Assembly (NCBI GenBank): GCA_013152275.1
Contig: JAADGS010000027.1
Location: 124,001 to 188,000, forward strand
Origin: Actinomycetota bacterium
GTDB lineage: Bacteria; Actinomycetota; Acidimicrobiia; Spongiisociales; UBA4744
Reading direction: 5' to 3'
Length of the DNA: 64,000 nt
The notes under the pieces: generated by a model
The model's database searches: none
Seen by the model: the letters and a program-made list of their open reading frames with translations, nothing else
Told to the model about the DNA's origin: nothing
In this document: in pieces, positions 27,440 through 64,000 of the stretch
Numbering within the stretch: the stretch's first letter is position 1
Layout: every line of letters starts with the position of its first letter
Translations under genes and position numbers: made by a program

Positions 27440-27449
27440 GGGGGTCGAC

Positions 27450-36893: not shown

Positions 36894-36907
36894 AGTCACA
36901 CCTCCTC

Positions 36908-43336: not shown

Positions 43337-43554
43337 GCTTGGACTGTACCAAATGGGACGAGGGAGGCAAGTCCAGGTGAAGAACCGTCGTGCCCTTCAT
43401 TGTCGGCATCATGGGCGATCGTCACCAGATGCGGACGCGACGATGCCGGTCGGCGTTCACCGATCGGCATCGTGTGGCTGAGAGTGCCCGGCGGTGGGGC
43501 GTGACCGGAGGTCGCCGGGCCAGATCACCCCGAACGCCGGGCGTGTTCGGGGGT

Positions 43555-43782
43555 CTACCGTCCTGTGAGCAGGTCGCTCCGTCTCTCTTCGAGTTCGAGC
43601 GCATCGATCTCCCCTCGGGCGAATCTTGCCTCGAGGATGTCGAGGGCGCGGTCGCGAGAGGTTGTCACCTGCTCCGGCCTCGAGCCGGCACTCCGAGCAA
43701 TCCAGACGATTCCCCAGAGGATCGCTCCCCAGAACAAGACCATCCAAAGAGCTCCGAACCATCCTCCAAATGACCACATCAT
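43555..43782 (-). CDS. Small SHOCT-domain membrane protein
   Basis: MMWSFGGW TM followed by ALDILEARFARGEID..E; AAGGAG Shine-Dalgarno. Confidence 0.85.
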   Translation of the reverse strand: MMWSFGGWFGALWMVLFWGAILWGIVWIARSAGSRPEQVTTSRDRALDILEARFARGEIDALELEERRSDLLTGR

Positions 43783-43878
43783 GGTGTTCTCCTTACCTGT
43801 TGATGCGGTCAGTACATCAGAGGAAGATGAACGGTCTACGCATGCCCGTGTAAAGCTTCTGCAACGGGTGACGCCTTC

Positions 43879-43895
43879 TTGCAACGAATTTGCAA
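43879..43895. promoter_or_regulatory. Nur-like (Fur family) box
   Basis: TTGCAA-CGAAT-TTGCAA about 40 nt upstream of the NiCoT-like gene. Confidence 0.55.
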
Positions 43896-43933
43896 TAAGC
43901 TGCTGTTCGAGAGACTTCGATAGGAGAAGGGCC

Positions 43934-47962: not shown

Positions 47963-48607
47963 TCATGGTTCTGTCCTGTCTTGTGGCACGGTGGCGACGA
48001 TCTCTCGCCAGACGCCTTCCCGTCGTACGTCTTCGAGTTCCAGGCCGGCAGCCACCACGTTGTCTTCGGTCGGCCGATTGATGTTGAATCCGAACACGTT
48101 TCGTGTGATGGGGTTCAACGCATCGAAGAGACGTGCGAGGAGTGCGTTGCGGGGTCGCACATGCTCGAGGAGCAGAACCCGGCCGCCGGGCTTCACGACT
48201 CGAGCCACCTCGCGTAGACCTGCCACAGGATCCGCGACGGAACAGAACACCGTGGTCGCCACTGCCGTGTCGAAGCTGTCATCGGCGAAGGGAGCTTGCT
48301 GAATGTCGGCGAGGTCGAGATCGACGGGCGCCGAGATTCGTTTGGCACGTCGCCTGGCTCGCTTCAACATGCCTTCGGACACATCGATGCCGACAAGCTG
48401 GACGTCTTGGGGATAGTGCTCCAGGTTCTTGCCGGTGCCGACACCCACCTCGAGGGTGGTTCCCCGCGCCTGAGACACGAGGCGCCGCCGCCTTCGTAGC
48501 GTTCCCAGCCGTTCCATCGGCGCGTCATACAGGTCGTAGAGAGGGGCTATCCGGTCGTAGCGCCGGGTGATCTCGGCTTGGCTCTCGACGGGGCCCTGTC
48601 CGGTCAT
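47963..48607 (-). CDS. Class I SAM-dependent methyltransferase
   Basis: YDRIAPLYD, LEVGVGTG, VFCSVADP, LLEHVR; ATGA overlap with DUF302. Confidence 0.9.
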   Translation of the reverse strand: MTGQGPVESQAEITRRYDRIAPLYDLYDAPMERLGTLRRRRRLVSQARGTTLEVGVGTGKNLEHYPQDVQLVGIDVSEGMLKRARRRAKRISAPVDLDLADIQQAPFADDSFDTAVATTVFCSVADPVAGLREVARVVKPGGRVLLLEHVRPRNALLARLFDALNPITRNVFGFNINRPTEDNVVAAGLELEDVRREGVWREIVATVPQDRTEP

Positions 48608-49008
48608 GCGTCTTCCAGGGCCGTGAGTACGGCGACGAGGCGCGACCGGGCTTCGTCGGCGATCGGCTGAATGTCGGAGCTCTCGCTGACGGAGAGCATG
48701 GCGGCGGGGTCGACGGCAGAGATCCGTGTAGACCCGTCCTCGGTGGCGCGCAACGTCACGTTGCACGGCAGCAAGAGGCCGATGGCCGGTTCGATGTTCA
48801 GTGCCTGATGCGCAAGATGCGGATTACAGGCTCCCAAGATCTTGTAAGGCGGTGTGGTGACTCCCAACTTTGCCTCGAGTGTCGCCGCCACGTCGATCTC
48901 GGTGAGAACGCCGAAGCCCTGTGCCGTCAGCGCGGCACGGGTTTCCTCCTCCGCGGATGCGATGTCGGTGTCCTTGGTGATGCTCATTTCGTAACCCTGC
49001 TTTTCCAT
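48604..49008 (-). CDS. DUF302 family protein
   Basis: GFGVLTEID, YKILGACNP, IGLLLPCNV, ISAVDP. Confidence 0.9.
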   Translation of the reverse strand: MEKQGYEMSITKDTDIASAEEETRAALTAQGFGVLTEIDVAATLEAKLGVTTPPYKILGACNPHLAHQALNIEPAIGLLLPCNVTLRATEDGSTRISAVDPAAMLSVSESSDIQPIADEARSRLVAVLTALEDA

Positions 49009-49058
49009 GGGAAAACCTCCTGCGGCAGGTAGCCGTCGTCGTGGGGTAGTGTGCTGTT

Positions 49059-49084
49059 TACCCTACCCCACCCCGGGTGGGGTG
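49059..49084. promoter_or_regulatory. CsoR-like G/C-tract operator between divergent DUF302 and lgt-like genes
   Basis: TACCCTACCCCACC-CCG-GGTGGGGTG with ACCCCACC/GGTGGGGT dyad. Confidence 0.45.
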
Positions 49085-49113
49085 CAAGTTTCCGGTCTCA
49101 GGAGAATGGCACC

Positions 49114-49977
49114 ATGTTCGGATTGATCAGCTACCGCCCGATTCCCATTTTCGAGTTGGGTCCGTTGAAGCTGTCGCTGCACGGGCTCGCCGCCGGGCTC
49201 GGGTTTCTCGCCGGCGCATGGCTGCTGTTGCGGATCGCCCGACGGCGCGGGTTCGACACGGAGCGACTGCAATCGGTGCTGACGTGGGCCTTGGTGGGAG
49301 CGTTGATCGGTGCGCCGCTGCTGACCGTGCCGGCGCGCCTGTTCAATCCTGGATTCGGATTCCACGATCTCTTCGCTTCGATGTCGATCCTCGGCGGTAT
49401 GACAGGCGGCATCCTCGCCGGTTGGATCAGGATGAGGATGCTCTCTTTGCCCTTCCTGCCGGTCATCGACATGGCGGCTCCCGGTCTTGCCCTGGGAACC
49501 GTGATCGGTCGGCTCGGGGATCTGGCGATCGTGGAACACCTTGGGAGGCGCACGTCGTTCTTTCTCGGCTATGCGGTGAAGCCCGGATATGATCTCGCAC
49601 CGCAGCACAACGCACTCGAGTGCACGACGTCGCAGGCCGTCGATGGCATCTGCGGTGTTTATCACCCCACCGCGCTCTACGATCTGCTCGGGGCGCTGGC
49701 GCTCCTCGGCGTGCTGCTGTGGCTCGGTAGGCGCTGGCAGACCCGGCACTATGGACAGCTCTTCGCCTTGTGGATGGCATGGTATGGATTGCAGCGATTC
49801 TTCGTCGATTTCACACGGGCGGGTGGACCCAACATCGACCAGATGATCGGTGGGGTCACGTGGAGTCAGGTGACCGGTCTCGGTGCCGGTCTGGCCGGCC
49901 TGATCTTGCTGTGGGTTCTGCGGCGGCGGATGCCTGTGGTCGGCGCCGAGCAGGACGAGGTGTATACGGCCGTCTGA
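49114..49977 (+). CDS. Prolipoprotein diacylglyceryl transferase (Lgt)-family protein
   Basis: IFELGPLKLSLHG, MSILGG, IGRLGD, HPTALYD, RFFVDFTR. Divergent from canonical Lgt. Confidence 0.8.
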   Translation: MFGLISYRPIPIFELGPLKLSLHGLAAGLGFLAGAWLLLRIARRRGFDTERLQSVLTWALVGALIGAPLLTVPARLFNPGFGFHDLFASMSILGGMTGGILAGWIRMRMLSLPFLPVIDMAAPGLALGTVIGRLGDLAIVEHLGRRTSFFLGYAVKPGYDLAPQHNALECTTSQAVDGICGVYHPTALYDLLGALALLGVLLWLGRRWQTRHYGQLFALWMAWYGLQRFFVDFTRAGGPNIDQMIGGVTWSQVTGLGAGLAGLILLWVLRRRMPVVGAEQDEVYTAV

Positions 49978-50218: not shown

Positions 50219-50250
50219 TTGACATTCCATTCGACTGGAGGGTGTACGTT
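50219..50250 (+). promoter_or_regulatory. MerR-type promoter/operator P1 (20-bp spacer)
   Basis: TTGACA-TTCCATTCGACTGGAGGGTG-TACGTT. Confidence 0.75.
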
Positions 50251-50440
50251 TGGCGGTGCTCGGCACGGTGAGCCGTCGCACCGTTCGATCTTCCGGCCGT
50301 GATCGCCGTGATCGTGGTGCTCTCCATCCCGGGAGACCGTCGTCCCGTGAGCGGAGAACGACGTAACCCGATCAGGGCTCTGCCGGGATGTCGAGCAGTT
50401 CGCAGGCGTGGTCGGCAGATTGCCTCGAGGAGGGGAACAC

Positions 50441-51616
50441 ATGAACGCCCAGGATCCCGAGTACACGATCGTCGGTGCCGGACCCGCCGGACTCGTTGCC
50501 GCCCTGACCCTTGCCCGCGCCGGCAAGAGGGTACGTGTGTTGGAGAAGGCCGACAGGGTGGGTCATCGTTTCAAGGGCGACTTTCAGGGTTTGGAGAACT
50601 GGTCGCAGCGACTGGACGGGCTCGAACGCCTGGCACGGCTCGGGGTCGAATCGACGTTTCGTCTCCGTCCGTTCCATGCCGTCAGCGTCTATGACCACAA
50701 GCTCCGACCAACCATCGCTCGTACCGCCGAGCCGCTCTTCTATCTGCTGTCCAGGGGACCAGGGTCGGGTTCGCTCGACACCTCGCTCCTGGCCCAGGTG
50801 CAACGGGCCGGTGTGGAGGTTCGGTTCAATTCGCCCGTTCGGCATCCGATACGCGGAGCCATCGTCTCCGCAGGGCCGCAGTATGCGCACGCCGTCGCCA
50901 CGGGCTACTTGTTCCAGACCGATCTCCCGGATCAGGCGCATTGTGTCTTCGCCGAGGAGGTGGCGCCGGCGGCGTATGCCTACTTGCTGGTCTGGGACGG
51001 GCGCGCGACGCTGGCAACGTGTCTCTTCGCCGACGTCGACCGGGCTGCCGAGGTCCGAAGAACCGCCGTCGAGGTATTCCAACGGCTCGTTCCGGGGCTC
51101 GACCTCACCGGTGCACGGCCGTTCTCGGGGTACGGGACGGTGTTCTCTCGAGCGGTGTTCAGCGATACCGTGGGTCAACTCTATGCCGGCGAGGCAGCAG
51201 GGCTCCAGGATCCGGAGTGGGGGTTTGGCCTCTGGTACGCGATGGAATCGGGTTGGCTCGCGGCCCGTTCCCTCCTCGAAGGATTCGACTATGCCGTGGA
51301 AGCATCCAGGCGTTTCGAGCTCCAGCGGCGTTCGGGCTTCGCCAATCGTCTGTTCTTTGAACATATCCCCCAAGCCATCATCCCCGTCTTGGTGCGACAA
51401 GTCGCTTCATCGAGCATGCTGCGGGAACGGCTGAGACGTCATTGGAAGCCGAATTGGGTGAAGTCCACGATTGCGTATGCCGGACGGTCGAGGCTGCGCC
51501 GGTTCACGCCGGACCGGGAGGTGAACGGCAAGGCAAGACGAAGCATGCCGGAGACGGCCGACCGATCTACACCGGGTGCCATCTTGTCTGCGCCGAGCGA
51601 CGGAGACACGATCTGA
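50441..51616 (+). CDS. NAD(P)/FAD-dependent oxidoreductase (geranylgeranyl reductase-like fold)
   Basis: IVGAGPAGL dinucleotide motif, GDFQGLENW, AGEAAGLQD...GFGL..AMESG; GAGGAGG Shine-Dalgarno. Confidence 0.85.
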   Translation: MNAQDPEYTIVGAGPAGLVAALTLARAGKRVRVLEKADRVGHRFKGDFQGLENWSQRLDGLERLARLGVESTFRLRPFHAVSVYDHKLRPTIARTAEPLFYLLSRGPGSGSLDTSLLAQVQRAGVEVRFNSPVRHPIRGAIVSAGPQYAHAVATGYLFQTDLPDQAHCVFAEEVAPAAYAYLLVWDGRATLATCLFADVDRAAEVRRTAVEVFQRLVPGLDLTGARPFSGYGTVFSRAVFSDTVGQLYAGEAAGLQDPEWGFGLWYAMESGWLAARSLLEGFDYAVEASRRFELQRRSGFANRLFFEHIPQAIIPVLVRQVASSSMLRERLRRHWKPNWVKSTIAYAGRSRLRRFTPDREVNGKARRSMPETADRSTPGAILSAPSDGDTI

Positions 51617-51692: not shown

Positions 51693-53135
51693 TCAACCCG
51701 GGAGCAGGTGGACGAGCTGCCAGGCTCCGATGAGTGGTTGAGCTATCACGCCGACGAGGATGACGCCTGCGGCGGTGACCACGACCGTGGCGCCCGAACG
51801 CCAATCCAAGACAGGCTGTGCTGCGAGGTGCTTGTCGACGTAGGCGGGAGCGATGATGCGCAGGTAGTAGAAGAGCGAGATCACCGAGTTGATCACGGTG
51901 ACGACGGCGAGCCACGTGTAACCGGCGTCGATCACGGCTCCCATGAGTAGCAGTTTCGCCGCGAAACCGCCGAGAGGCGGTATTCCCACGAAGGAGAGGA
52001 ATCCGATCGCCAAAGCTGCGGCGAGCCAGGGGTGTGGGCCTGCAAGTCCCCGATACGATTCACGGTCGGTGAGGCCGCGAAGTTGGACGACCACACCGAA
52101 TACTGCGAGCGTCGCGAGGGCGTAGGCGACCAGGAACATGAGCAGGGAAGGGATCGCCAGATCACTGCGGCCGAGTGCGACGATGGCCAGGAGCCCGTAT
52201 CCCGCCTGTGAGACTGCCGACCAACCCAGCAGCCTTCGCACATCGGTTTGCCAGAGGGCCGCGAGGTTTCCCAGGGTCATCGTGGCCGCCGCCAGGATCG
52301 CCGTCAGCGGTCGCCACCCGAGCGCGGTATCGGGGATCACCATGACCAGGCGAGCCAGGAACACGAACGCGCCGACCTTGCCGACGATCATCAGGAACGG
52401 AGCCACGGGAGCCGGCGCGCCCTCTGCAACGTCCGGCACCCACGGGTGAACCGGGACGGCACCCAACTTGAAGGCCACGCCGATCATGACGAGACCGAAG
52501 CCGACGATGAGGGCGAGTGGATCTGCACCGACGAGGCCGGTGCGCAGTCCGGTCAGCGTGGTGGTTCCGCCGAGCCCGAACAGGAATCCGACACCATACA
52601 GCGCCGTGCCGTTGGCGAGCGCTCCAAGGAGGAAGTACTTCATCCCGGCCTCGGAGGAGTTTCTCGATCGCCGGTGAAACGCAGCCAGTGTGAACCCGGT
52701 CACCGACGAGAGCAGCATGGCCACGATGAACTCCATGAGACTGGACGCGCCCGCCAGGAGCACTGCACCAAGAGTCCCAAACAGCAGGATCGCGTAGTAC
52801 TCGCCGTGGCGGGCGTCCGACCTGAACCATTCGACCGAGAGGGCCACGGTGAAGATCGTCACGACGATCAGTACGAGGGTGGCCCACCGGCCAACCCCGT
52901 CGATGGCGAGCGTGTCGAAGAACGTGAGGCGAGAAGGCCCCGCCAGGTCCTGGCCGGCGAAGAAACCGGCCGCGGCGAGTATGGCGACGGCAAACGCGCC
53001 GATCCACGCCTGGAACCGGCGCGGAGTGAAAAGGGCGACGAAGATGATCGCTATCGCCCCCAGAGCGAGCGTCAGCTCGGGGAGGACGTCCCCGAGGAAG
53101 CGCACCATCTGGGCACTCATGTCGACTCCGGCCAT
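51693..53135 (-). CDS. NuoN-like antiporter subunit
   Basis: EAGMKYFLLG, FKLGAVPVHPWVPDVAEGAP, GKVG, GIPPLGGFAAK. Confidence 0.9.
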   Translation of the reverse strand: MAGVDMSAQMVRFLGDVLPELTLALGAIAIIFVALFTPRRFQAWIGAFAVAILAAAGFFAGQDLAGPSRLTFFDTLAIDGVGRWATLVLIVVTIFTVALSVEWFRSDARHGEYYAILLFGTLGAVLLAGASSLMEFIVAMLLSSVTGFTLAAFHRRSRNSSEAGMKYFLLGALANGTALYGVGFLFGLGGTTTLTGLRTGLVGADPLALIVGFGLVMIGVAFKLGAVPVHPWVPDVAEGAPAPVAPFLMIVGKVGAFVFLARLVMVIPDTALGWRPLTAILAAATMTLGNLAALWQTDVRRLLGWSAVSQAGYGLLAIVALGRSDLAIPSLLMFLVAYALATLAVFGVVVQLRGLTDRESYRGLAGPHPWLAAALAIGFLSFVGIPPLGGFAAKLLLMGAVIDAGYTWLAVVTVINSVISLFYYLRIIAPAYVDKHLAAQPVLDWRSGATVVVTAAGVILVGVIAQPLIGAWQLVHLLPG

Positions 53136-53136
53136 G

Positions 53137-54612
53137 TCAACCGCCCACGACGGCTCGGCTGAATGCGTTGACCACGTTGACCAGCCACGCAGGAGCGACT
53201 CCGATGACGACGACGAGCACGAGCGCCGGCGTGAGCGCGACCATCTCCGACCATCCGAGGTCCGTCCAGCCCGTCCAGCGTTCCGGCAGAGGACCGAGGA
53301 ACACCTGCTGCAACATTCTCAGGAACAGCGCAGCAGTCACGACGATCCCCAGCAGTCCGATAGCCGCCAGCCAGGGGAACACACCGAGGGTGCCGGCGAA
53401 GATCTGGAACTCGGCGACGAATCCGGCGAGGCCCGGCAGCCCGAGGCTCGCGAAAGCTGCGAGCATCATCGCTCCGGTCAATGCCGGCGCCCGGGACGCA
53501 AGCCCTCCGAACTCCCCCATCTCATACGTGTGGCCGCGGGCCAGTATCGAGCCGGACAGGAGGAACATGCTGCCGGTGATGAGACCGTGGGCGACCATCT
53601 CCACGGTGGCGCCGGTCAACGCAAGAGAGCGGGCGGCGTCCGAACCGACGAATGCCGCGCCGACCGACACGCCGAGGATCACGTAGCCCATGTGATTGAC
53701 AGACGTGTAGGCGATGAGGCGTTTCAGGTTGGTCTGCGCCATCGCAACCAACGCCCCATACACGATGCTGACGACCGCGATGATTCCGAGAGGGAGCGCA
53801 AACCTGTCGAAGGTGCCCGGCATCATCTGGAGGAGCACACGGATGAACCCGTACGTCCCCATCTTCAGCAGCACACCGGCGAGGATCGTGGAAGCCGGCG
53901 CCGGGGCGTCGACATGGGCGGGCGGAAGCCAGGTGTGGAACGGCACCAGTGGTGCCTTGATGGCGAAGCCGATGGCGATGGCCCAGAAGATGAGCGTCGA
54001 GGCGAGCCCCGCAGCCGGGAGCGGCTGGGTGCGGATGATCTCGATCATGTCGAACGTGCGGGGCGACGTGTTCAGGTAGATGCCAAGAATGCCGAGCAGC
54101 AATGCCAGGGATCCGACGAGTGTGTAGAGGAAGAACTTGAGCGCCGAACGCTGGGCGTCGCCGTGTCCCCAGATGGCGATGAGGAAGTACATGCCTACCA
54201 GCGAGAGGTCGAAGAAGACGAAGAACAGGATGAGGTCCAGGGCGAAGAAGAGGCCCAGTGAAGCCGTCTCGAGGAAGAGGAAGGCCGCGTAGTACTGGCG
54301 TGCCTTGCCGCGTAGGTCGGCGGGGAAGACCATCGAGAGGGTGAACAGCAGAGCCGTCATTGCCAGCAGCGGGAGGGACAGCCCGTCGACGCCGACCTGA
54401 TAGGTGACTCCGATCGAGGTGATCCATGGGGCCGATTCGACGAGTTCGAAGCCGGGGCCCCCCTTGAACATGGTCCATGCCGCGATGATGATGCCCAGTG
54501 GCACGAGGCTCACTGCCACAGCCGTCCAGCGGGCAAGCTGGGGTCGGTCCTTCGGAAAACCGAGCAGCGCTGCTGCTGCGATCACGGGAAGGAAGATGGC
54601 GATACTGAGCAT
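53137..54612 (-). CDS. NuoM-like antiporter subunit
   Basis: KFFLYT, IKAPLVPFHTWLPPAHVDAP, LLKMG, KRLIAYTSVNHMG, GFVAEF. Confidence 0.92.
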   Translation of the reverse strand: MLSIAIFLPVIAAAALLGFPKDRPQLARWTAVAVSLVPLGIIIAAWTMFKGGPGFELVESAPWITSIGVTYQVGVDGLSLPLLAMTALLFTLSMVFPADLRGKARQYYAAFLFLETASLGLFFALDLILFFVFFDLSLVGMYFLIAIWGHGDAQRSALKFFLYTLVGSLALLLGILGIYLNTSPRTFDMIEIIRTQPLPAAGLASTLIFWAIAIGFAIKAPLVPFHTWLPPAHVDAPAPASTILAGVLLKMGTYGFIRVLLQMMPGTFDRFALPLGIIAVVSIVYGALVAMAQTNLKRLIAYTSVNHMGYVILGVSVGAAFVGSDAARSLALTGATVEMVAHGLITGSMFLLSGSILARGHTYEMGEFGGLASRAPALTGAMMLAAFASLGLPGLAGFVAEFQIFAGTLGVFPWLAAIGLLGIVVTAALFLRMLQQVFLGPLPERWTGWTDLGWSEMVALTPALVLVVVIGVAPAWLVNVVNAFSRAVVGG

Positions 54613-54616
54613 TGGG

Positions 54617-56533
54617 CTACCTCCAGAGAACGGTCACGAAGATGATGAGGGCGGCGCCGATCACGAGGATCGTGTAGTAGTGGTAGGACATGCCGGTTTG
54701 GAGCTTTCGGCTCTGCTCGCCGGCGATGCCGATTCCGAGGGCGATTCCTTCGACGGTCCCGTCGACGGCCTCGTCATCCACGGATCGTGATGTGTCCGCC
54801 GTGCGCAGCACGCCGCCGGCTATCACGTGCACGCCTCCATCGATGACCCGTTCCGCGCTCCTGCGCAGAGAAGCCGACACACGAGTGGCTGTGCGAGCAG
54901 TGCCCAGCACGAGTGCGTCCACGACGGAGCGGTCCGTGATCCTGAGGCCTTCGGACAGGCGCAGCACAGGGTCGACGATCACGACGCGTCCTGCCGTCGG
55001 CAAGCCCCACCAGTCGGCCACTGCGGCACGGAGACGGTCGGGAATCCCGAGATCGACGAGGCGGTGGCGTTTCCAGAGCGCGGCGATGATCGCCAACCCG
55101 AGAGCGATGACTCCCAGAGATACCCACAGTTCCCACGGCTCCCCCCCTGCGATCCGGCCCGATGCGACCGTCTCGAGAAGCTTCTCTCCTCCAGGGAGCC
55201 AGAGTGCACCGAGGAGCAACGTGATCGTGGCGAGTGCGCCGATCGCGAGAAGCTCGCCGACCCCCGGACGTTCGCCACTGGTCTGTGTGGGGCCTGGCCC
55301 ATAGCCGAGCAGGTGAAGGCGGCTTGCGTACAGGACGGACAAGAGTCCGGCAACGACCGTTCCCGCCCCGACCCAGACGCCGGCGTCGAAGGCTGCGGCT
55401 AGGACGGCTTCCTTGGTGAAGGCGCCGCCCAGAGGAGGGATGGCAGCCAACGCAGCCGCACCGACACCGAACAGGAGCGCCACTTTCGGCAGGGCCGAGC
55501 CGAGACGGAGCGAGCCAAGATCCAGTGTGCCTCCCGTGTGGAGTGCCACGCCCGCACCGAGGAACAGGAGTGCTTTGAAGAAGGCGTGGGCGGTGAGCTG
55601 ACCCATGCCGGCTGCGGTGAAACCGGCACCGATCGCTATCAGCATCAATCCGTACTGGGCGGACGTGGAGCCTGCCAGCGCTCTCTTGAAGTCGGTCTGG
55701 ACGAGTGCCACCACACCGCCCGCCAGCGCGGTGACGAGGCCAAGTCCGATGACGGTCGGTGGGAACCACGGAACCTGCGAGAAGATCGGCTCGAGCCGGA
55801 TGAGTGCATAGGCGCCCGCGGCCACCATCGTCGCCGAATGGAGTAGCGCCGATACGGGGGAGGGGCCTGCCATCGCCGAGAACAACCAGGGAGAGAAGGG
55901 AACCTGGGCGGATTTCGCTGCGGCCGCCACGAGCACCCCGCCGGCGGCGATGGCCAGCCAGCGGGGGTCGGATGAAGCGGCGAGGTCGCTGTACCGGAAG
56001 CTGCCTGTCGCTGCAAAGGCGGCGCCGGCGGCGAGGTACAGCCCCAGGTCTCCGAAGCGCGTCGTGATGAACGCCTCCTTCGCCGAACGGGGCCGGTTCG
56101 GGTCGCGCCACTCGTGACCGATGAGTGACCAGGATGCCGCACCGACCAGTTCCCAGCCGATGAGCAACGTGAGGAAATCGGCGGCGACCACCAGCAGCTC
56201 CATGGCCCCGACAAAGGCGACCATGAGCCCAAGAAGGCGGGCGAGCGCCGGATCACGGCGGAGGCTTGCAGCGGTGAAACCCACGATCGGTAGCGCCACC
56301 AACGGTACGAGCACCACCATGGGACGGGCGGCACCCTCGACGGAGAGTTGGAGGGCGATACCTGCACCCCAGTCCCAGGATGCCGTCGAACCCGCGAACG
56401 CGGCGACGACGGCGACGGCGAGCGTCCCTGCGAGCGCGGCGACGGCGATGGGACCCAGAAGTCTGCGCCGACGCCGGAATAGGAGCACCATGGCGGTACC
56501 CGCTACCGGCACGAAAACTGGCAGCCAGGCCAT
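54617..56533 (-). CDS. NuoL/MrpA-like antiporter subunit
   Basis: GWELVG, KSAQVPFSPWL..AMAGPSPVSALLHSATMV, HAFFKALLFL. Start at the TGATG overlap. Confidence 0.92.
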   Translation of the reverse strand: MAWLPVFVPVAGTAMVLLFRRRRRLLGPIAVAALAGTLAVAVVAAFAGSTASWDWGAGIALQLSVEGAARPMVVLVPLVALPIVGFTAASLRRDPALARLLGLMVAFVGAMELLVVAADFLTLLIGWELVGAASWSLIGHEWRDPNRPRSAKEAFITTRFGDLGLYLAAGAAFAATGSFRYSDLAASSDPRWLAIAAGGVLVAAAAKSAQVPFSPWLFSAMAGPSPVSALLHSATMVAAGAYALIRLEPIFSQVPWFPPTVIGLGLVTALAGGVVALVQTDFKRALAGSTSAQYGLMLIAIGAGFTAAGMGQLTAHAFFKALLFLGAGVALHTGGTLDLGSLRLGSALPKVALLFGVGAAALAAIPPLGGAFTKEAVLAAAFDAGVWVGAGTVVAGLLSVLYASRLHLLGYGPGPTQTSGERPGVGELLAIGALATITLLLGALWLPGGEKLLETVASGRIAGGEPWELWVSLGVIALGLAIIAALWKRHRLVDLGIPDRLRAAVADWWGLPTAGRVVIVDPVLRLSEGLRITDRSVVDALVLGTARTATRVSASLRRSAERVIDGGVHVIAGGVLRTADTSRSVDDEAVDGTVEGIALGIGIAGEQSRKLQTGMSYHYYTILVIGAALIIFVTVLWR

Positions 56534-56838
56534 CAGTTTCGGAGCCTCTTCAGCTTCTCGGTGATGTCGGCCTTTCGTGCCCGGTACACGTTCGCCACCA
56601 GCGCGAAACCGATCGCCGCCTCGATGGCCATGGCCGTCATGACCACGATCACGAGGAGTTGGCCTTCCGGGTTGCCGCCGGTGGAACCCCACCAGAAAGC
56701 GGCGACGGCCAGGATGGTGGCGTTCAGCATCAACTCGAGTCCCATCATGATCATGACGAAGGACTGCTGGCTGAGAGCACCGTAGATACCGACGCCGAAG
56801 ATGGCGGCAGCCACGACAAGGAGTGCTTCAAGGCTCAC
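56533..56838 (-). CDS. NuoK-like subunit
   Basis: MGLELMLNA, AIEAAIGFAL; 101 aa, three TMs. Confidence 0.9.
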   Translation of the reverse strand: MSLEALLVVAAAIFGVGIYGALSQQSFVMIMMGLELMLNATILAVAAFWWGSTGGNPEGQLLVIVVMTAMAIEAAIGFALVANVYRARKADITEKLKRLRN

Positions 56839-57398
56839 TGGCTCGTCTCCACTTCGAGTGGAGGTTCTTCGGAGCCCTGTTCGGCGTCCCCGTACCGTCC
56901 ACGGTGAGAGACGAGCGCGATCGCTCCGATCATGACGGCGAGGAGTGCCACGCCGGCAGATTCGAACACGAGCATCGACGTCCCGAGGAGTTCCTGGCCA
57001 AGGGGGACGATGGCCGGCCCGACGATGGCTGCCGGACGATCCGGAAACTCGGCGAACAATCCGACGGTTGCCAGGGCCAGGAACGAACCGACGCCAGAGA
57101 GGATTGCCGTGCGATGTTGGTGCACCATGAGCATCGGGTTCAGACCGGCCGGGTTCATCATGAACATCACCATGAAGATCGCCATGATGGTCATTTCCCC
57201 GGCCATCATCAGGATGAGGATGAGGCCGAGAAACTGCGCGTTGAGCGTGACGAGAATGGCTCCGACCGCTACGAACGACGCCATCAACCAGTACGCCGCC
57301 CGCACCATCGAGTCGGTCACGAACACGAGGATCGCCGAGATCACGGCCATCGCCGAGAAGGCCCAGAAGAGCACGTCGGTCGGCCATCCGCCGCTCAC
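56835..57398 (-). CDS. NuoJ-like subunit, Met-rich
   Basis: LNAQFLG, LGQELL...FESAGVALLAVMIGAIAL. GTGA overlaps at both ends. Confidence 0.88.
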   Translation of the reverse strand: MSGGWPTDVLFWAFSAMAVISAILVFVTDSMVRAAYWLMASFVAVGAILVTLNAQFLGLILILMMAGEMTIMAIFMVMFMMNPAGLNPMLMVHQHRTAILSGVGSFLALATVGLFAEFPDRPAAIVGPAIVPLGQELLGTSMLVFESAGVALLAVMIGAIALVSHRGRYGDAEQGSEEPPLEVETSQ

Positions 57399-58315
57399 AG
57401 TGTCAACGCTCCCGAGACGAAGACGTCTACGAGGGCAAGAGGGAGGAGCACCAGCCAGCCGAACTTCACGACATTCTCCATTCTCGGACGAGCGGTCCGA
57501 TGACCGAACCAGATCATGACGGCCAGCAAGGCGACCGTCTTGAGGATCGACCATGCCCAGCCGGGGAGCCAAGGGCCGAGAGGGCCACCCAGGAATGCGG
57601 CCGATCCCATGGCGGCGGCCGAGACGAGGAGTGCGGCTCTCGCCGTCCGCCACGCGAGCAGTGCCGTTCCCGACGTCTCGGTCTGTGAGCCACCTGCGAG
57701 GTCGGCGGCATCGGGATGCTGAAAGGGTCCCCAAAACGCGAATCCGAGCGCCGTCAAGAGGTAGATGGGCAGGCCGAGCGGCTGGCGGAGCACGTTCCAC
57801 AATTCCGCCTGGGAGCTGATGATGACTCCTACGGACAGGGATTCGGCGGGTATGGCCGTTGTGATGAGCACCAGGGAGAACGGGATCCCCACGGAGAGGG
57901 CCAACGCTGCGAACCGGTATCCGCCGATCAGCGGAAAGATCGAGTTCGACGACCAACCGTGCAGGAAGACCGCCACCATCACCTGGACCAGGGCTGCACC
58001 GAAGAGAACGATGCCGACGGGCACGTCGGCGATGGCGAGCCCCGGGGTGAGTGGGATCGCGGTGAAGGCCACCGCCGCGAGGCCGGCGAGCAAAGCCGGT
58101 GCCAACGCCCAAGCCTCCCGGTCGGGCCGTTCGGTGACGGTCCTGCGTTGCGACATGAGGAGAGCAACGCTGCGGAAGGGGTCGAGAAGGAGCGCAGCGG
58201 TACCCTCGCGGTTCCCGGCCGCCGTGCCGGCCAAGAGTCGGTCGAGCACCGACACGATGTACACACCGGCGCCGAGGACCCCGCCCGTGAAGAGGATTGC
58301 AGTGGCCGGGTTCAC
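57395..58315 (-). CDS. NuoH-like subunit (divergent)
   Basis: GWSSNSIFPLIGGYR, SLSVGVIISSQ, PFQHPDAADLAGGSQTETSG, RPRME...GW..LLPLAL. Confidence 0.85.
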   Translation of the reverse strand: MNPATAILFTGGVLGAGVYIVSVLDRLLAGTAAGNREGTAALLLDPFRSVALLMSQRRTVTERPDREAWALAPALLAGLAAVAFTAIPLTPGLAIADVPVGIVLFGAALVQVMVAVFLHGWSSNSIFPLIGGYRFAALALSVGIPFSLVLITTAIPAESLSVGVIISSQAELWNVLRQPLGLPIYLLTALGFAFWGPFQHPDAADLAGGSQTETSGTALLAWRTARAALLVSAAAMGSAAFLGGPLGPWLPGWAWSILKTVALLAVMIWFGHRTARPRMENVVKFGWLVLLPLALVDVFVSGALTL

Positions 58316-59604
58316 GCAGCTTCCCCTTCGCCGGCACTCGGGGGAGCCGCGGCTGCCTCGGCAGGGTCCATGTCGATGCTCGCCAGGCAGGTCACCGCGT
58401 CCCCCCACTCGAGGCCGGTCAGGAGGGCAGGCAGGAGTTCGAGTAGCCGGCTCGAAGGGGTCGGTGCTCCTTGCTCCAGCCGTCCGTGGGGTCCTTCGAC
58501 GACGCCGTCGCCGAATGCGGTTCGATCTGGAGCTTGCATGGCGAGATCGAGAGACTGGGTGATCTCAGCGAGCCGCTGTCTCCAGCGAGCGCGAGGGTCG
58601 CCGTCGGCGAACGTGATGGGTGTGAACCCGAGGCTGCGATAGGTGGGATCCTCCAATCTGGCGTCATCAGGAAGGCCACTCGCTCTGGCAACGGGGCCGA
58701 GACCCTCTGTCAACGAGGGATCGAGGCGACCGGCCGAACCGAGGCTCCAGGCGAAGGCGCCGCTTTTTCGGATGGCGCGAGCCAACGCGTCGACGGCGTC
58801 GTTGTCCTGGGGTGTCAACCGTGCGGCGAGCCGGAGCGCCCGAAGTCCCAGGGCTCCGAGTCCCACCAGACGCAGCGCTTCGGCCAGCCAGATCAGATGG
58901 TGTCGGGCTCGGGCCAGTTCCAGGTCGGCGAGAGGGACCGGACGGCGCAGAGCTTCTTTGAAAGGGGAGGCGATGGCGGCGGTCACGGCCGCCGGCCCGA
59001 CAGAGGCTTCCTGGATGATGTCGCCCTGGAATGTCACTCGAAGTGTCAATCCGGCGGGGAGGGCAGGAAGCCAGGGCCCCAGCGTCACCGGAAGGCGATC
59101 GAGCTGGATGCCGTCCCGGTCGGGTCCGCGTTCGGCCATCGGACGTCCGTAGGGGACACCTCCGGTCATGCCCTTGCCCCCCTGACCGTATGGCCCGACA
59201 TTTCGCCATTCGGCCGGATCGATGTCCGGCAGCAGGGGTGCTTCCGAGGGAAGTGTGCCGTGGAGGAGAGCGCGGTGGAGATCCACGATGGCATCCACGA
59301 GTCCATCGACGTTCCCGGACACGACATGTTCCGCGGGAAGACCTTCGAGCGTGGTTGGCCCCCAGTGAACGGTCAGGCGAGGTGGCGACATCTGGTCGTG
59401 AACGCGACGGAGGGCGGCGATGCCGGCATCCGTGAACGATCCCGCCACCAACAGGATGTTTGCAGGCCTGGGTGTGTCCAGCATGCTGATTTCGGTGCGC
59501 AGACGCAGATTCGCCAGGTCGTCGCGTGCACCGGCTCCCCCCACGGCGAATACCGGGACGCGAGCTCGGCCGGCGATGCCTGCCAGGAGGCCTTTCAGGC
59601 CCAT
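58312..59604 (-). CDS. Degenerate NuoB-NuoD-like fusion protein lacking Fe-S ligands
   Basis: N-part TPRPANILLVAG...VHDQMSPPR resembles NuoB. C-part LGPWLPALP, ELARARHHL, GPVARASG, GDPRARW, VEGPHG, LASID resembles NuoD. Only one Cys. Confidence 0.8.
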   Translation of the reverse strand: MGLKGLLAGIAGRARVPVFAVGGAGARDDLANLRLRTEISMLDTPRPANILLVAGSFTDAGIAALRRVHDQMSPPRLTVHWGPTTLEGLPAEHVVSGNVDGLVDAIVDLHRALLHGTLPSEAPLLPDIDPAEWRNVGPYGQGGKGMTGGVPYGRPMAERGPDRDGIQLDRLPVTLGPWLPALPAGLTLRVTFQGDIIQEASVGPAAVTAAIASPFKEALRRPVPLADLELARARHHLIWLAEALRLVGLGALGLRALRLAARLTPQDNDAVDALARAIRKSGAFAWSLGSAGRLDPSLTEGLGPVARASGLPDDARLEDPTYRSLGFTPITFADGDPRARWRQRLAEITQSLDLAMQAPDRTAFGDGVVEGPHGRLEQGAPTPSSRLLELLPALLTGLEWGDAVTCLASIDMDPAEAAAAPPSAGEGEAA

Positions 59605-59948
59605 TCGAACCCTCGCTCACGCCAGGCGTACACGATTCCTACGACCAGGATGAGGATGAACATCAGCATCTCGACCAGTGAGAGGAGTCCCTCCCGCACG
59701 AACACGACTGCCCACGGGTACATGAAGACCATCTCCATGTCGAAAGCCAGGAAGAGCAACGCCATCGCGTAGTAGCGGGTGTGGAACCGGTTCCATGCGT
59801 GGAAATCCGGTTCCACACCTCCGGCGGACGGAACGCGCTCGGGCGCGGTTGTCAGTACGGGGTTGAGCCGATCACCCACCCATCGGGTGCCGACGACTGC
59901 AAGCCCGGCTGCCAGGAACACTACGAGCGCAGCTCCGAGAGATGCCAT
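59595..59948 (-). CDS. NuoA-like subunit
   Basis: RYYAMALLFLAFDMEMVFMYPWA, YAWRERGFEW. Confidence 0.9.
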   Translation of the reverse strand: MASLGAALVVFLAAGLAVVGTRWVGDRLNPVLTTAPERVPSAGGVEPDFHAWNRFHTRYYAMALLFLAFDMEMVFMYPWAVVFVREGLLSLVEMLMFILILVVGIVYAWRERGFEWA

Positions 59949-59949
59949 G

Positions 59950-60096
59950 TCAGGCGACGTAGTCCTTCGGGTTCTCGTCGAACTCTTCTTTGCAGTCGTT
60001 CGAACAGAAGTAGTAGGTCGTCCCTTCGTACGCGCTCGTGCCGACGGCATCGTCCATCTCAATGGTCATGCCGCAGACCGGGTCTTTCATTTTCAT
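59950..60096 (-). CDS. YHS-domain small metal-binding protein
   Basis: KDPVCGM...YEGTTYYFCSNDCKEEFDENP; GAGGAG Shine-Dalgarno. Confidence 0.92.
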   Translation of the reverse strand: MKMKDPVCGMTIEMDDAVGTSAYEGTTYYFCSNDCKEEFDENPKDYVA

Positions 60097-60276
60097 CTCG
60101 CACTCCTCTTGTATTGCGCGGCCGCCGACCCAGCGACGGCCATCCATTCGTTTCACTCTATCCGGTGAGGAGCCTCGTGGCTCTCCTTGATTCCTCGCTC
60201 GAACTCACCTCCTTGTGCCGACCCACCCATCTCCTTGTCGGAGTGGCCGCGTTGAGTCGGTGTTCAAGTCGTCATC

Positions 60277-60308
60277 TTTCTACACCTTCCATCCGCCTGG
60301 AATGTCAA
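60277..60308 (-). promoter_or_regulatory. MerR-type promoter/operator P2 (YHS-nuo-like operon)
   Basis: Minus strand TTGACA-TTCCAGGCGGATGGAAGGTG-TAGAAA. Confidence 0.75.
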
Positions 60309-60442: not shown

Positions 60443-60474
60443 TTGACATTCCAGTTGCCTGGAAGGTGTAACTT
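60443..60474 (+). promoter_or_regulatory. MerR-type promoter/operator P3 (ABC operon)
   Basis: TTGACA-TTCCAGTTGCCTGGAAGGTG-TAACTT. Confidence 0.8.
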
Positions 60475-60497
60475 GCGAATATCGAGAGGAGGACCGA

Positions 60498-61190
60498 ATG
60501 AGTGACGACCCGAATGTGACGCTGGTGACGTCAGGCGGACCGGTCGATCGGCTGGTGGGCGCCCCGGTCGTACTCGAGGCGCGCTCGGTGATGAAGAGCT
60601 ATGTCAGGGGATGGCGGAGGAGGCCGCTCAGGGTCCTTCGGGGCGCCGATCTGGAACTCCATGCGGGAGAGATCGTGGGTCTCGTGGGAGAGAACGGCTC
60701 CGGCAAGTCCACCTTCATGAAGATTCTCGTAGGCGCGCTCGATCGTGATGGCGGTGAACTCGTCCGAACGGGAACCTTTGGGTACTGCCCGCAAGAGCCT
60801 GTCTTGTATGAGCGACTCACCTGTGACGAGCATTTCGAGTTGTTCGGACACGCCTACGATCTCGATCCCGGAGTCAGCGATCGAAATCGTGACGAGATCT
60901 ACGAACGGTTCGGATTCGAAGCGTACCGGGACGTTCTCGTGGAGGAGTTGTCCGGTGGCACCCGCGCCAAGCTGAATCTCGGCGTCGCGCTCCTGGCGGA
61001 TCCGCAGATACTGTTGCTTGACGAGCCCTATGCGGGGTTCGACTGGGATACGTACCTGCGTTTCTGGGAGTTGACGGCGGAGCGGCGTGATGCCGGCCGT
61101 TCCGTGCTCATTATCAGTCATTTCGTCGCCGACGAGGGGCGATTCGACCGTATCGTGGAGCTGCGGGACGGTCGTGCGGTCGAGCGATGA
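60498..61190 (+). CDS. ABC transporter ATP-binding protein
   Basis: GENGSGKST, LSGGTRAK, LLLDEPY. Confidence 0.92.
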   Translation: MSDDPNVTLVTSGGPVDRLVGAPVVLEARSVMKSYVRGWRRRPLRVLRGADLELHAGEIVGLVGENGSGKSTFMKILVGALDRDGGELVRTGTFGYCPQEPVLYERLTCDEHFELFGHAYDLDPGVSDRNRDEIYERFGFEAYRDVLVEELSGGTRAKLNLGVALLADPQILLLDEPYAGFDWDTYLRFWELTAERRDAGRSVLIISHFVADEGRFDRIVELRDGRAVER

Positions 61191-62686
61191 AGGCGACACT
61201 GCTTACCCGCCGGTATCTGCTCGAGTATGCGCGCAGACCGTTGAATCTCGTCCTGCTGCTTCTTGTTCCTCTCGTGTTCGTCGTGCTGGTCTCGGGTGCG
61301 CTCGGCGATTTCGCCAAGGTGATTGGTGGGGTTGGCGATCCTGGCCTGTTGGCAGCTCCGAGTGCCGGATGGGCGGCCGGGTTCCTTGCCGGCGTCGCCG
61401 GTTTCTTTCATGTGCTCGGCTCTCGAAATGCCGACCGGCGGCTGGCTTCGGCGGGGTTCGGTCCTCGCCGTATCGTGACCGCTCGTCTCATCTCTGGTGT
61501 GATTCTGGCGCTCCTGGCTGCCGCATCGGCGCTCGTGGCGCTAGCGGCGCGTACCGGTCTGGCGGATCCGGTGCGAGCGATCGCGGGTTCGGTCATGTTC
61601 GCCGTCATCTACCTTGCCATCGGTGTGGCGGTCGGCTCGGTGATTCGCAACGAGGTCAACGGGTCGTTGGTCGTGATCTTCGTTTGGATGCTCGACGTGT
61701 TCCTCGGTCCGGCCATGGCCGGCGGCGACGTGTGGGTCACCCGTCTGTTCCCCACGCATTTCGTGACGTTGCTCATGCTCGACGCCCCATCCGGGCATGC
61801 GGGGTCGATCGGCGATGTGGGCTGGGCGTTGCTGTGGACTGTCGGCGCTCTGTTGCTGGCGGCCGTGTTGCTTGCATCCGCGACGAAGACACATCCTTTA
61901 CACTGGTACCGTGGCGCACGTTGGGCGTCGGTCCGTCGGGCCTGGGAGGGTCTGCGCTACGGGATGCGCGAGTACCGACGCAACATCGCCATGTGGGTGC
62001 TGCTGGCGGTGCTGCCGGTCTTCTTCATCTCTCTCAGTTTCGTCATCACTCCCGATCAGCCTGCTCCTGTGGAGTTGTCCGAGGGAGGCGTGACCACGGC
62101 CCGGTTGATCTCCATGACGGACCTCCACGGCGCGATCATGGTCCCGATCACCATCGCATTCTTGGCAGGGTTGGCCGGGCTGTTCGTGATACAGGCGTCT
62201 TCGGAGGCTGATCGCCGGCTGGTGATCGCCGGGTTCCGAACCCGCGAGATCTTGGTGGCGCGGCTCGGAGTCATCGGTCTCGCCGGTCTGATCGCGACCG
62301 GGGTGTCCCTGGCGATCACGGCGATCGACTTCACACCAGGCTCCTGGATGGGGTTTACCGTCGGTAACGTGCTGGTAGCGGTGACGTACGGGCTGGTGGG
62401 GGTGTTGATCGGTTCACTGTTTGGGCGACTTGGAGGTCTCTATCTGATGTTCCTCCTGCCCTTCATCGATGTTGGCCTCGCACAGAACGTCATGTTCTCC
62501 GCCGTTCCTCCTGCCTGGGGTGCGTTCCTGCCGGCACGGGGCGCGATGCGCGTGCTCGTCAACGCGGCATTTACGCCGAGCTTCGACCAGATCGGCAATC
62601 TGCTGCTCGCTCTCGGCTGGGTGGTAGCCCTCGGATTGGTGGCTGCCCTGGTGTTGCGCCGCACGGCCGGGGTCCAGAGCACCTGA
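61187..62686 (+). CDS. ABC-2 permease with two tandem permease halves
   Basis: Internal duplication: LEYARRP/REYRRN and ADRRLASAGF/ADRRLVIAGF. Confidence 0.85.
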   Translation: MKATLLTRRYLLEYARRPLNLVLLLLVPLVFVVLVSGALGDFAKVIGGVGDPGLLAAPSAGWAAGFLAGVAGFFHVLGSRNADRRLASAGFGPRRIVTARLISGVILALLAAASALVALAARTGLADPVRAIAGSVMFAVIYLAIGVAVGSVIRNEVNGSLVVIFVWMLDVFLGPAMAGGDVWVTRLFPTHFVTLLMLDAPSGHAGSIGDVGWALLWTVGALLLAAVLLASATKTHPLHWYRGARWASVRRAWEGLRYGMREYRRNIAMWVLLAVLPVFFISLSFVITPDQPAPVELSEGGVTTARLISMTDLHGAIMVPITIAFLAGLAGLFVIQASSEADRRLVIAGFRTREILVARLGVIGLAGLIATGVSLAITAIDFTPGSWMGFTVGNVLVAVTYGLVGVLIGSLFGRLGGLYLMFLLPFIDVGLAQNVMFSAVPPAWGAFLPARGAMRVLVNAAFTPSFDQIGNLLLALGWVVALGLVAALVLRRTAGVQST

Positions 62687-62944: not shown

Positions 62945-63448
62945 TCAAGCATTCTCCGTCCCCTCGCATTTCGGGCCTCGCAGTGGTTCATCGATCGTCT
63001 CTGGGCCATGAGGAGGCCCCGTGATCACGGACGCGGTGTCCACCACGACGGCCCCGTCGACGATCTCGACCGCGAAGCGATCCAGGCCTCGTGGGGCGGG
63101 GCCTTCTCGCCACTCTCCGACCCGGTTGAACTTCGAGCCATGACACGGGCATTCGAACTCACCCGAAGAATCACACCACGGCACCCTGCATCCAAGGTGC
63201 GGGCACTTCCACCAGAGTGCCACGGTCTCACCTTTGTCGGTGGTGAGGTATCCGCGCATGGCGTTCACTTCGGTGACGTTGTCCGTCGGCACGCCGTTGG
63301 CCGGCCCCGCATTCACTATCTCGCCGAACCCGCCGGTTTTCGACGGCTTGAAGATGTCCCAGGTCGTCCAGATGCCCGCAACACTCACCAGCCCGAATCC
63401 CCACTTCCAGGCCCTCGTCAGCAGCTCTCTCCGGTTGATCTTGCTCAT
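62945..63448 (-). CDS. Rieske 2Fe-2S protein (QcrA/PetC-like) with Tat signal
   Basis: NRRELL, CPHLGC, CPCHGS, GPAPRGLDRF. Confidence 0.93.
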   Translation of the reverse strand: MSKINRRELLTRAWKWGFGLVSVAGIWTTWDIFKPSKTGGFGEIVNAGPANGVPTDNVTEVNAMRGYLTTDKGETVALWWKCPHLGCRVPWCDSSGEFECPCHGSKFNRVGEWREGPAPRGLDRFAVEIVDGAVVVDTASVITGPPHGPETIDEPLRGPKCEGTENA

Positions 63449-63707
63449 GATATTTCGTCCTGGTCTCTCCGCCGAGGAGAACCGGCGGTTCCGGGCCGGT
63501 GGTCGACAAATCGTAATGGCGTTCTTTTGCCTGCGCGGCTTCCTCCGCCATGACTGGAGACCGTGCGGTTGCCGGTTGGTCGTTCGATCTGCCCAATGGG
63601 GAGCCGGTCTCGGCGACCGGCTCGTGCACCATCTCCTCGCCTGTTCTTCCGGTTTCTTATCCGTCGGACTTGCTCGTCACCATATCGGTGAGCGGTCCTT
63701 ACCGTCT

Positions 63708-63739
63708 TTTGTACACCCTCTACCCGAGGGGAATGTCAA
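63708..63739 (-). promoter_or_regulatory. MerR-type promoter/operator P4 (Rieske unit)
   Basis: Minus strand TTGACA-TTCCCCTCGGGTAGAGGGTG-TACAAA. Confidence 0.6.
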
Positions 63740-64000
63740 GGGGTAGAGGGTTCTGATCGGTCGCCTACGTCGAGCGATCGGCGTAGGCGACAGGCGGGGA
63801 GGCGGTCTCGTCAAGCGACCGGAGCTTGTTTCCGGTCGTGTCCAAACACCGTCGCCGGGCCTCGATCGACGTCCGCCGACCTGGGCCATGCCGGTCGTTC
63901 GAGTGACCCTCGACGTTGGTTACTTCCCGTGGGAGTGAGGGGTCGGCCGCTTGTGGACATGCCGGGCGGCCGCAGCACCTCTGACCGACTCGTGATGAAT

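Follow-up and report, generated by a model that had tools for sequence, protein, structure and literature searches.

We analyzed a nine-gene operon in a 64,000-nt window of Actinomycetota bacterium contig JAADGS010000027.1. It encodes the seven membrane subunits of complex I (NuoA, H, J, K, L, M, and N), a fusion protein, X, that resembles NuoB joined to NuoD, and a YHS protein; unless a genome contig or locus is named, coordinates are positions in the window. About 20 near-invariant methionines, together with a new glutamate and two histidines, are confined to NuoA, NuoJ, and NuoK and centered on the third transmembrane helix (TM3) of NuoJ. An earlier note on this DNA had overlooked this set, and canonical NuoA, NuoJ, and NuoK lack it. 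That note proposed a metal-linked transporter coupled to the proton-motive force (pmf), and the methionine track sharpens the proposal to a complex that probably moves Cu(I)/Ag(I) itself. Judging from its sequences, the operon product is probably not a respiratory enzyme but a secondary, pmf-driven Cu(I)/Ag(I):H+ exporter that arose by remodeling of complex I and works in an Mrp-like way.

The genes run on the − strand from 60096 to 51693 in the order YHS-nuoA-X-nuoH-J-K-L-M-N, with neighboring genes overlapping or lying no more than 4 nt apart. Pfam assignments across the operon were YHS, Oxidored_q4, Complex1_49kDa, NADHdh, Oxidored_q3, Oxidored_q2, and three times Proton_antipo_M. Coordinates, junctions, and assignments all agree with the operon as it had first been drawn:

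59950..60096, − strand: YHS/TRASH protein (Pfam YHS), 48 aa, DPVCGM...YYFCSxxC; candidate cytoplasmic metal chaperone
59595..59948, − strand: NuoA-like, 117 aa; D70/E72 retained (E. coli D79/E81); new near-invariant H56, M71, M73, M76, and M94
58312..59604, − strand: X, a NuoB-NuoD fusion head free of cofactors, 430 aa; its flexible GGxGMTGG linker is conserved
57395..58315, − strand: NuoH-like, 306 aa; quinone-cavity residues largely gone, E228/K274/R291 equivalents retained
56835..57398, − strand: NuoJ-like, 187 aa; TM3 stripe M64, M65, E68, M69, M72, M76, M80, M81; loop M89/M91/H93; also M31 and M142
56533..56838, − strand: NuoK-like, 101 aa; E35/E73 retained; near-invariant M29, M31, M32, and M70
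54617..56533, − strand: NuoL-like, 638 aa; E128, K207, H232, K320, and K374 intact
53137..54612, − strand: NuoM-like, 491 aa; D135 (for E144), K219, K250, H307, and E401
51693..53135, − strand: NuoN-like, 480 aa; three axis lysines retained, TM5 Glu replaced by Leu

Residue conservation was analyzed with NuoA on a 108-aa start (numbers 9 lower) and NuoN on a 475-aa start. NuoJ residues M31, M64, M65, E68, M69, M72, M76, M80, M81, M89, M91, H93, and M142 were conserved in 66 or 67 of 67 family proteins, and the TM3 methionine sites were invariant in all 67. When a second set of 120 database NuoJ matches was inspected, 13 of 14 tested sites were kept in 119 or 120 of them; M156 was not kept. NuoK M29, M31, M32, and M70 were conserved in 56 to 59 of 59 proteins, and NuoA H56, M71, M73, M76, and M94 in 75 to 77 of 77. 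Among columns conserved at 90% or more, methionine made up 11 of 30 in family NuoJ versus 1 of 16 in canonical NuoJ, 4 of 25 versus 1 of 23 in NuoK, and 4 of 31 versus 0 of 16 in NuoA, the canonical controls being drawn largely from the same genomes as the family. The conserved-methionine share of family NuoH, NuoL, NuoM, and NuoN was at background.

The predicted structure of NuoJ has the methionine stripe spanning the full length of TM3 (residues 55 to 80), where it stands in for E. coli NuoJ Y59, A62, and I63. Conserved transmembrane methionines along a helix predicted to span the bilayer resemble the arrangement in Met-relay Cu(I)/Ag(I) transporters. A Foldseek search with the NuoJ model returned weak matches only, nearly all of them NuoJ or ND6. 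The sidedness that we assign to the membrane helices of the family is our assumption. NuoJ TM3 is the π-bulge gate of complex I, lying between NuoA D79 and NuoK E36 and blocked by I63 (PMC10212512; 10.64898/2026.01.27.702182). The cation ligand E706 of MrpA corresponds to NuoJ Y59 (PMC7419157), and Cu(I) carriers are marked by transmembrane methionine motifs (PMC3817396).

The redox sites of complex I are gone. A profile of X built from 46 homologues matched NuoB/PSST in its N-terminal part and NuoD/49-kDa chains in its C-terminal part when compared with PDB chains, and its AlphaFold model (pLDDT 88.7) has a fold matching NuoD and a disordered linker at 130 to 155 that contains GGxGMTGG; the linker motif GM[TMS]GG was present in 234 of 267 X proteins. 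None of the 267 had the CCxxE motif of NuoB, which has four cysteines for cluster N2, and the B-like part of X contains no cysteine at all. The HPxxHG quinone-site motif of NuoD was likewise found in 0 of 267, its histidine loop GPxHPSxHG (GPQHPSTHG) aligning to GPWLPALP in X. A CxxC of any kind, looked for as a sign of NiFe CxxC pairs or a small-subunit iron-sulfur (Fe-S) site, occurred in 1 of 267. The eight Nuo-like proteins of the operon hold a single cysteine between them (X C406) and therefore no CxxC or ferredoxin motif, as had been reported.

The operon was also said to lack nuoC, E, F, G, and I, and this extends to its relatives: tblastn against 110 related loci found no homologue of NuoB, C, E, F, G, or I apart from one formate dehydrogenase, and a NuoD fragment lay at one contig edge. 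Whether homologous operons usually hold intact NuoB and NuoI had been raised as a check, and none of the 110 loci did. A second proposed check concerned a separate complete nuo operon; the host genome carries two, a 14-subunit and an 11-subunit operon, both on contig C10.

The membrane set A, H, J, K, L, M, and N retains the charged central axis of complex I, with exceptions at NuoN E133, NuoJ Y59, and the NuoH cavity. In E. coli numbering, NuoL E144, K229, H254, K342, and K399 were invariant in 54 of 54 proteins. NuoM K234, K265, and H322 were retained in at least 50 of 51, E144 being Asp or Glu (mostly Asp) and E407 being Glu or Asp in 50 of 51. The NuoA D79/E81 and NuoK E36/E72 positions are still acidic. 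NuoN keeps its lysines, and its E133 was replaced by Leu, Val, Met, or Ile in 49 of 49. In NuoH, R46, K66, and E218 are gone, D63 and E71 are mostly gone, and E241 has become Arg or Gln. All of the motifs listed as retained in the earlier note are thus present, but the retention of membrane-arm charges that it described does not extend to NuoN E133 or to several quinone-cavity residues of NuoH, and it is altered at NuoM E144.

We counted relatives in several collections. X had 982 matches among 8000 scored candidates and 403 clusters at E ≤ 1e-30 in a 50%-identity library, with Chloroflexi and Gemmatimonadales also among the database names of its matches. A Streptomyces-type NuoJ gave 2323 matches at E ≤ 1e-25 among 4424 candidates, which were not checked individually. 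Sampling of 401 genomes across the phylum turned up the operon in 29 (a tally including the unpublished genome G318), and in one class 30 of 401 had it. Any NuoM match was present on 393 plasmids, the top 36 of which stood apart at 39 to 59% identity. Among ten plasmid loci that we inspected, A-X-H-J-K-L-M-N was present in eight (Halomonas, Roseivivax, Rubrobacter, Sulfitobacter, Nitratireductor, Mycobacterium avium, Pseudonocardia, and Arthrobacter), one was truncated (Xanthobacter), and one was without X (Methylobacterium). A single-protein scan of a collection of genome contigs gave two matches, both spurious, and a scan of viral contigs with the NuoJ alignment gave none.

Gene order was constant across family loci, while the metal-binding module varied in form. 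A separate YHS gene was present in 67 of 106 loci, and C8, M10, C31, and C35 of its product were invariant in 49 of 49 proteins. The other forms were HMBD domains with His/Met tracts inside X, His-rich linkers in X, and a His/Met loop in NuoJ where X is absent. The X-less Methylobacterium plasmid locus (L194:7602-14930), A-H-J-K-L-M-N, has a long His/Met insert in the loop between NuoJ TM3 and TM4 and forms the deepest family-side branch of the tree. On the Roseivivax plasmid (L020:14989-15897), deletions in the NuoD part have cut X to 302 aa, and NuoJ has a long His-rich tail.

In a FastTree phylogeny of 133 antiporter-like subunits, which included only two Mrp operons and no Mbh or Mbs sequences, family NuoL, NuoM, and NuoN each formed one branch (support 98, 100, and 100) beside true NuoL, NuoM, and NuoN and apart from the small number of Mrp and Hyf rows. 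When 15 family and 12 canonical operons were concatenated, the resulting tree (quick search, midpoint root) split the two groups at a support of 100 in the SH-like approximate likelihood ratio test (SH-aLRT). Between the window operon and its relative L054, the ratio of nonsynonymous to synonymous substitution rates (dN/dS) was about 0.18 for NuoM, 0.23 for NuoJ, 0.24 for NuoL, and 0.33 for X. Full-length NuoH to NuoN was present in 45 of 110 loci, most of the others being cut by contig ends. The operon is real, neither an artifact nor a product of decay, and its family, which branched from complex I long ago, is widespread, often carried on plasmids, and maintained under purifying selection. 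The question of whether its subunits nest inside canonical Nuo with signs of recent decay is answered by this separate branch and these low dN/dS values.

The operon lies behind a predicted MerR-type promoter with a 20-bp spacer, which had been noticed before and proved to recur:

60277..60308, − strand: MerR-type promoter, TTGACA, 20-nt spacer with the dyad TTCCA-N6-TGGAA, TAGAAA; its start lies 212 nt before the YHS gene
60443..60475, + strand: second, divergent copy of the promoter, ahead of an ABC-2 exporter pair
63920..64000, − strand: 3′ end of a MerR-family metal sensor gene that continues beyond the window edge (genome C64:187920-188387)

There were 4 copies of the promoter in the window versus 0 in 100 shuffles, and 11 in the genome versus 0 or 1 per shuffle (35 shuffles). 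Copies of the site precede two copper-type P1B ATPases (contigs C31 and C93) that score above the TIGR01511 copper cutoff, and this shared promoter is what connects the operon to copper in this genome. The other genes behind it encode a cupredoxin, a type II glyceraldehyde-3-phosphate dehydrogenase (GAPDH), a Glu dehydrogenase, two flavin oxidoreductases, the ABC-2 pair, a Rieske protein, and BlaI/M48. A sigma-70 promoter scan found nothing, because it admitted only spacers of 16 to 18 nt, and an Rfam search of 43000-64000 gave zero matches.

The MerR-family protein encoded 3.6 kb from the operon is likely to be the regulator of its promoter. It scored under the cutoff of every named subfamily (91 bits against a cutoff of 147 for the CueR equivalog) and has a third cysteine; the regulator therefore does not fix the inducing metal. 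On the same score and extra cysteine we rejected the label "CueR regulon."

Several loci behind the same promoter were recorded in their own right. An rnfC/rnfD/apbE-like cluster at C12:16160-20095, labeled from a reading of its sequences, appears to be a second energy-conserving module of the regulon. Contig C93 (6000-13600, locus L015) has four copies of the promoter within 7.5 kb, preceding a Glu dehydrogenase with a flavin oxidoreductase, an archaeal-type (type II) GAPDH with a P1B ATPase whose TM6 motif is the unusual CPD, and an SPW-repeat protein that has a His/Met tail. Within the window, copies precede a geranylgeranyl-reductase-like flavoprotein (50219-51616, + strand) that converges on nuoN and has a paralogue in the C93 cluster, the ABC-2 exporter pair with its duplicated permease (60443-62686, + strand), and a lone Rieske protein (62945-63739, − strand).

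A survey of gene neighborhoods with the X profile, as the earlier note had suggested, did reveal an association with metal genes. Counting CsoR, CopA, CopZ, multicopper oxidases (MCO), CopB/D, CusA, cupredoxins, and metal MerR proteins, we found copper genes within 6 kb of 33 of 53 family loci whose flanks reached 6 kb or more versus 0 of 25 canonical nuo loci, although the latter had shorter flanks, the profiles behind the 33 were built from the same neighborhoods, and many of the loci are kin. Random 12-kb windows of this genome held a gene of the copper set in 3.4% of cases. P1B ATPases of the neighbor cluster had CPC in TM6 in 9 of 11 cases, and 7 also ended in MxxSS. Using operator consensus sequences, we found 8 MerR-type boxes (0.46 expected) and 14 CsoR-like boxes (2.36 expected) in 83 upstream regions; a de novo palindrome search upstream of the operons found no further operator class. 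Control of the operon thus appears to be tied to two unrelated metal sensors that are active at high metal, MerR-type here and CsoR elsewhere. Four loci (L251, L252, L255, and L258) have tandem pairs of CsoR-like operators upstream of nuoA and no csoR gene nearby. Among Actinomycetes held out from the survey, the methionine motif was present in 20 of 20 loci, and a CsoR-like box in 5 of 19 (0.37 expected; one family contributed four of these) versus 1 of 19 canonical loci; the copper-gene association there was weaker, as weighed below.

We favor, as the simplest interpretation, an Mrp-like Cu(I)/Ag(I) antiporter because the redox input is gone, the L/M proton machinery is kept, the gate is relined with soft-metal ligands, and control appears to lie with metal sensors. 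The idea of a metal-linked, pmf-coupled transporter gains support from the family's own branch, from purifying selection, and from the copper genes and operators. Every transport step in the following scheme is one that we infer from sequence. Excess copper would induce the operon by way of a MerR-type activator here and a CsoR repressor elsewhere. Cytoplasmic Cu(I) would be collected by the YHS protein or, in other lineages, by HMBD and His/Met tracts in X or the NuoJ loop. The X/H head may then dock this chaperone at the cytoplasmic mouth (NuoJ M89/M91/H93 and NuoA H56), from where Cu(I) would travel along the TM3 stripe and the adjoining methionines of NuoA and NuoK. Protons moving inward through L-M-N would alter the charge at NuoK E35/E73, NuoA D70, and NuoJ E68 and so drive release to the outside, as Mrp does for Na+.

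Several observations weigh against this reading. Clustering of the TM3 stripe on one face is modest (P = 0.016 for 7 positions, 0.11 with M81 added), NuoN lacks the TM5 glutamate at the N/K junction, and the X-less Methylobacterium form keeps NuoJ Y59 and only part of the stripe. The genomes that we checked already hold CopA-type pumps, which leaves the need for a nine-gene exporter unexplained. The local MerR protein scores best, though under the cutoff, to CadR/PbrR, and its extra cysteine is typical of divalent-metal sensors. Besides the shared origin of profiles and loci behind the 33 of 53, a core copper gene lay within 6 kb in only 4 of 19 held-out loci, one further locus having PCuAC adjoining nuoA (40 of 114 neighbors covered), and about half of the held-out loci had neither copper gene nor operator.

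Other functions would account for parts of this evidence. Cu(I) at the methionine site might be a signal and not a cargo, gating an Mrp-like H+/Na+/K+ exchange that guards pH and pmf under copper stress. The metabolic genes behind the shared promoter (type II GAPDH, Glu dehydrogenase, flavin oxidoreductases, and the rnfC/D-like cluster) do resemble a stress-backup regulon, but one site would be enough for a sensor, methionines line all of TM3, MrpE, F, and G are missing, and the position of the MrpA Na+ ligand is a methionine; we regard this explanation as unlikely. Copper uptake through the same path, or its metered delivery to cuproenzymes (multicopper oxidases or cytochrome oxidase assembly), seems more doubtful again. 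MerR-type activators and CsoR switch genes on at high copper, and import of a cation is downhill and would make three proton-channel subunits needless, even though the importers CcoA and Ctr1 are likewise marked by Met-rich helices and family neighbors include MCO, SCO, CopD, PCuAC, and cytochrome c biogenesis genes. Slightly less credible still is a complex that remains a redox pump, borrowing NuoC, I, E, F, and G from its host or exchanging electrons between quinol and Cu(II)/Cu(I) in the H/X cavity. NuoH and a well-folded B/D head are retained, and canonical complex I genes lie elsewhere in 54 of 54 sampled hosts checked; no carrier genome without canonical complex I was found among these 54. 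That figure is uninformative because the base rate is too high: canonical NuoD was found in 362 of the 401 genomes of that class in any case. The motifs CCxxE and HPxxHG are missing from every X protein, the NuoH cavity residues are gone, one lineage is wholly without X, and the Kocuria table lists nuo as 1 in S43 and 0 in its relative.

The published view, in which the cluster pumps protons or sodium as an adaptation to marine or osmotic conditions, draws on its presence in marine Salinispora, Kocuria, and Streptomyces and its absence from some soil relatives (PMC3314556, PMC6002675, PMC6676996, PMC8622039). We consider it very improbable: a pump without a redox arm would have no energy input, the carriers include soil, clinical, and copper-mine isolates, and the methionine track, HMBD/YHS modules, and copper operators would be left unexplained. 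Loss of catalytic residues might instead mark a decaying duplicate of the host nuo operon, to which we attach a negligible probability. The family is one clade over several phyla, apart from host Nuo, with full-length NuoH to NuoN in 45 of 110 loci, dN/dS of 0.18 to 0.33, and newly gained invariant residues; its separate clade, dN/dS, and gained residues refute decay.

If the operon does encode a pmf-driven Cu(I)/Ag(I) exporter, CopA, Cus, and Pco would be joined by a new class of bacterial copper transporter, and a widespread operon now labeled either NADH dehydrogenase or a marine-adaptation gene would be reassigned. We incline, somewhat less firmly than to export itself, to the wider view that this is an unrecognized class of copper/silver pump in which the complex I proton arm runs in reverse, up to three proton-channel subunits expelling Cu(I) through a Met-lined E-channel fed by a YHS or HMBD chaperone. 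In such a pump, the coupling gate of complex I would have been converted in nature to a site for a transition metal and spread on plasmids across several phyla. The system would also be a natural experiment on the long-disputed coupling of E-channel events in complex I to the L, M, and N subunits: the redox input is lost and the NuoJ TM3 gate would carry a metal site, so that a simple ion gradient would be enough to test coupling.

The surroundings had been described as a metal-homeostasis neighborhood. This stands for the MerR-family regulator 3.6 kb off, BlaI/CopY, DUF302, SHOCT, a NicO-like gene, and arsR-acr3, but neither copA nor a multicopper oxidase occurs within the 64-kb window. The arsR-acr3 pair lies with the SHOCT protein and the NicO-like permease at 41854-44707; this group and that at 47963-49977 (lgt, DUF302, and a methyltransferase) are typical metal-island passengers. 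Two further segments (22693-28694 and 32501-41477) encode a multiheme cytochrome c, a cytochrome b, and two YeeE-type sulfur transporters beside an operon for a molybdopterin oxidoreductase that also includes a two-component system and mobB; they are likely to be a thiosulfate or tetrathionate respiration locus. Beyond the window (C64:188813-198335, locus L012), blaI-M48 is followed by short open reading frames that, as an impression from their sequences, resemble polymorphic toxin C termini and immunity genes.

The gene cluster itself has been noticed in print before, as "NDH-1 partial 2" or as nuoA-hypothetical-nuoHJKLMN "marine adaptation genes," and read as an H+/Na+ pump (PMC3314556, PMC6002675, PMC6676996, PMC8622039). 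Our operon has the same gene order as this actinomycete "partial nuo" operon by its published description, the Salinispora and Kocuria sequences themselves not having been compared. Family NuoJ matches include Streptomyces albidoflavus, from the species group of the published operon, with the full methionine motif. In the available parts of these papers the operon appears as a gene list only, with no NuoB/NuoD identity for the hypothetical gene and neither a methionine track nor a link to copper; the word "copper" is absent from PMC3314556. A recent plasmid survey (10.1101/2025.03.13.643058) speaks, in the part available, of nothing beyond "partial sets" on plasmids, and the word metal does not occur there. 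Our literature search, which covered main texts and few subscription papers, found no description of a copper role for the operon.

The view that the operon fits neither complex I nor Mrp held up, since by its features it belongs neither to complex I nor to Mrp nor to the hydrogenase-type complexes. It shares with complex I (NuoA-N, including the 11-subunit form and Fpo) the seven membrane subunits in the same order, B/D-like folds, a charged L/M axis, and the grouping of its L, M, and N with NuoL, NuoM, and NuoN. Unlike complex I, it lacks C, E, F, G, and I, joins B and D in one protein that has no Fe-S or quinone ligands, has a gate helix relined with methionine, and carries a predicted metal-responsive promoter and a YHS or HMBD module. 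Group-4 hydrogenases, Ehr, Mbh, and Mbs likewise combine a membrane arm with B/D-like soluble subunits, but they keep a small-subunit Fe-S cluster and an I-like ferredoxin, whereas our operon has neither of these and no NiFe CxxC. In CusA, CcoA/Ctr1, and the CopA entry site, transmembrane methionines (with Glu/Asp) are Cu(I) ligands, as may be the case here, and CusA is proton driven (PMC3817396); their fold and ancestry are unrelated. Mrp (MrpA-G) also has no redox arm, and its antiporter-like subunits are coupled to a cation site at a NuoJ/NuoK-like module (PMC7419157). Unlike Mrp, the operon has A, H, X, and three antiporter subunits, is without MrpB, E, F, and G, does not group with the Mrp rows (two Mrp operons in the tree), and places soft-metal ligands where Mrp has a carboxylate. 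By analogy, Mrp is nevertheless the system that the operon product most likely works like.

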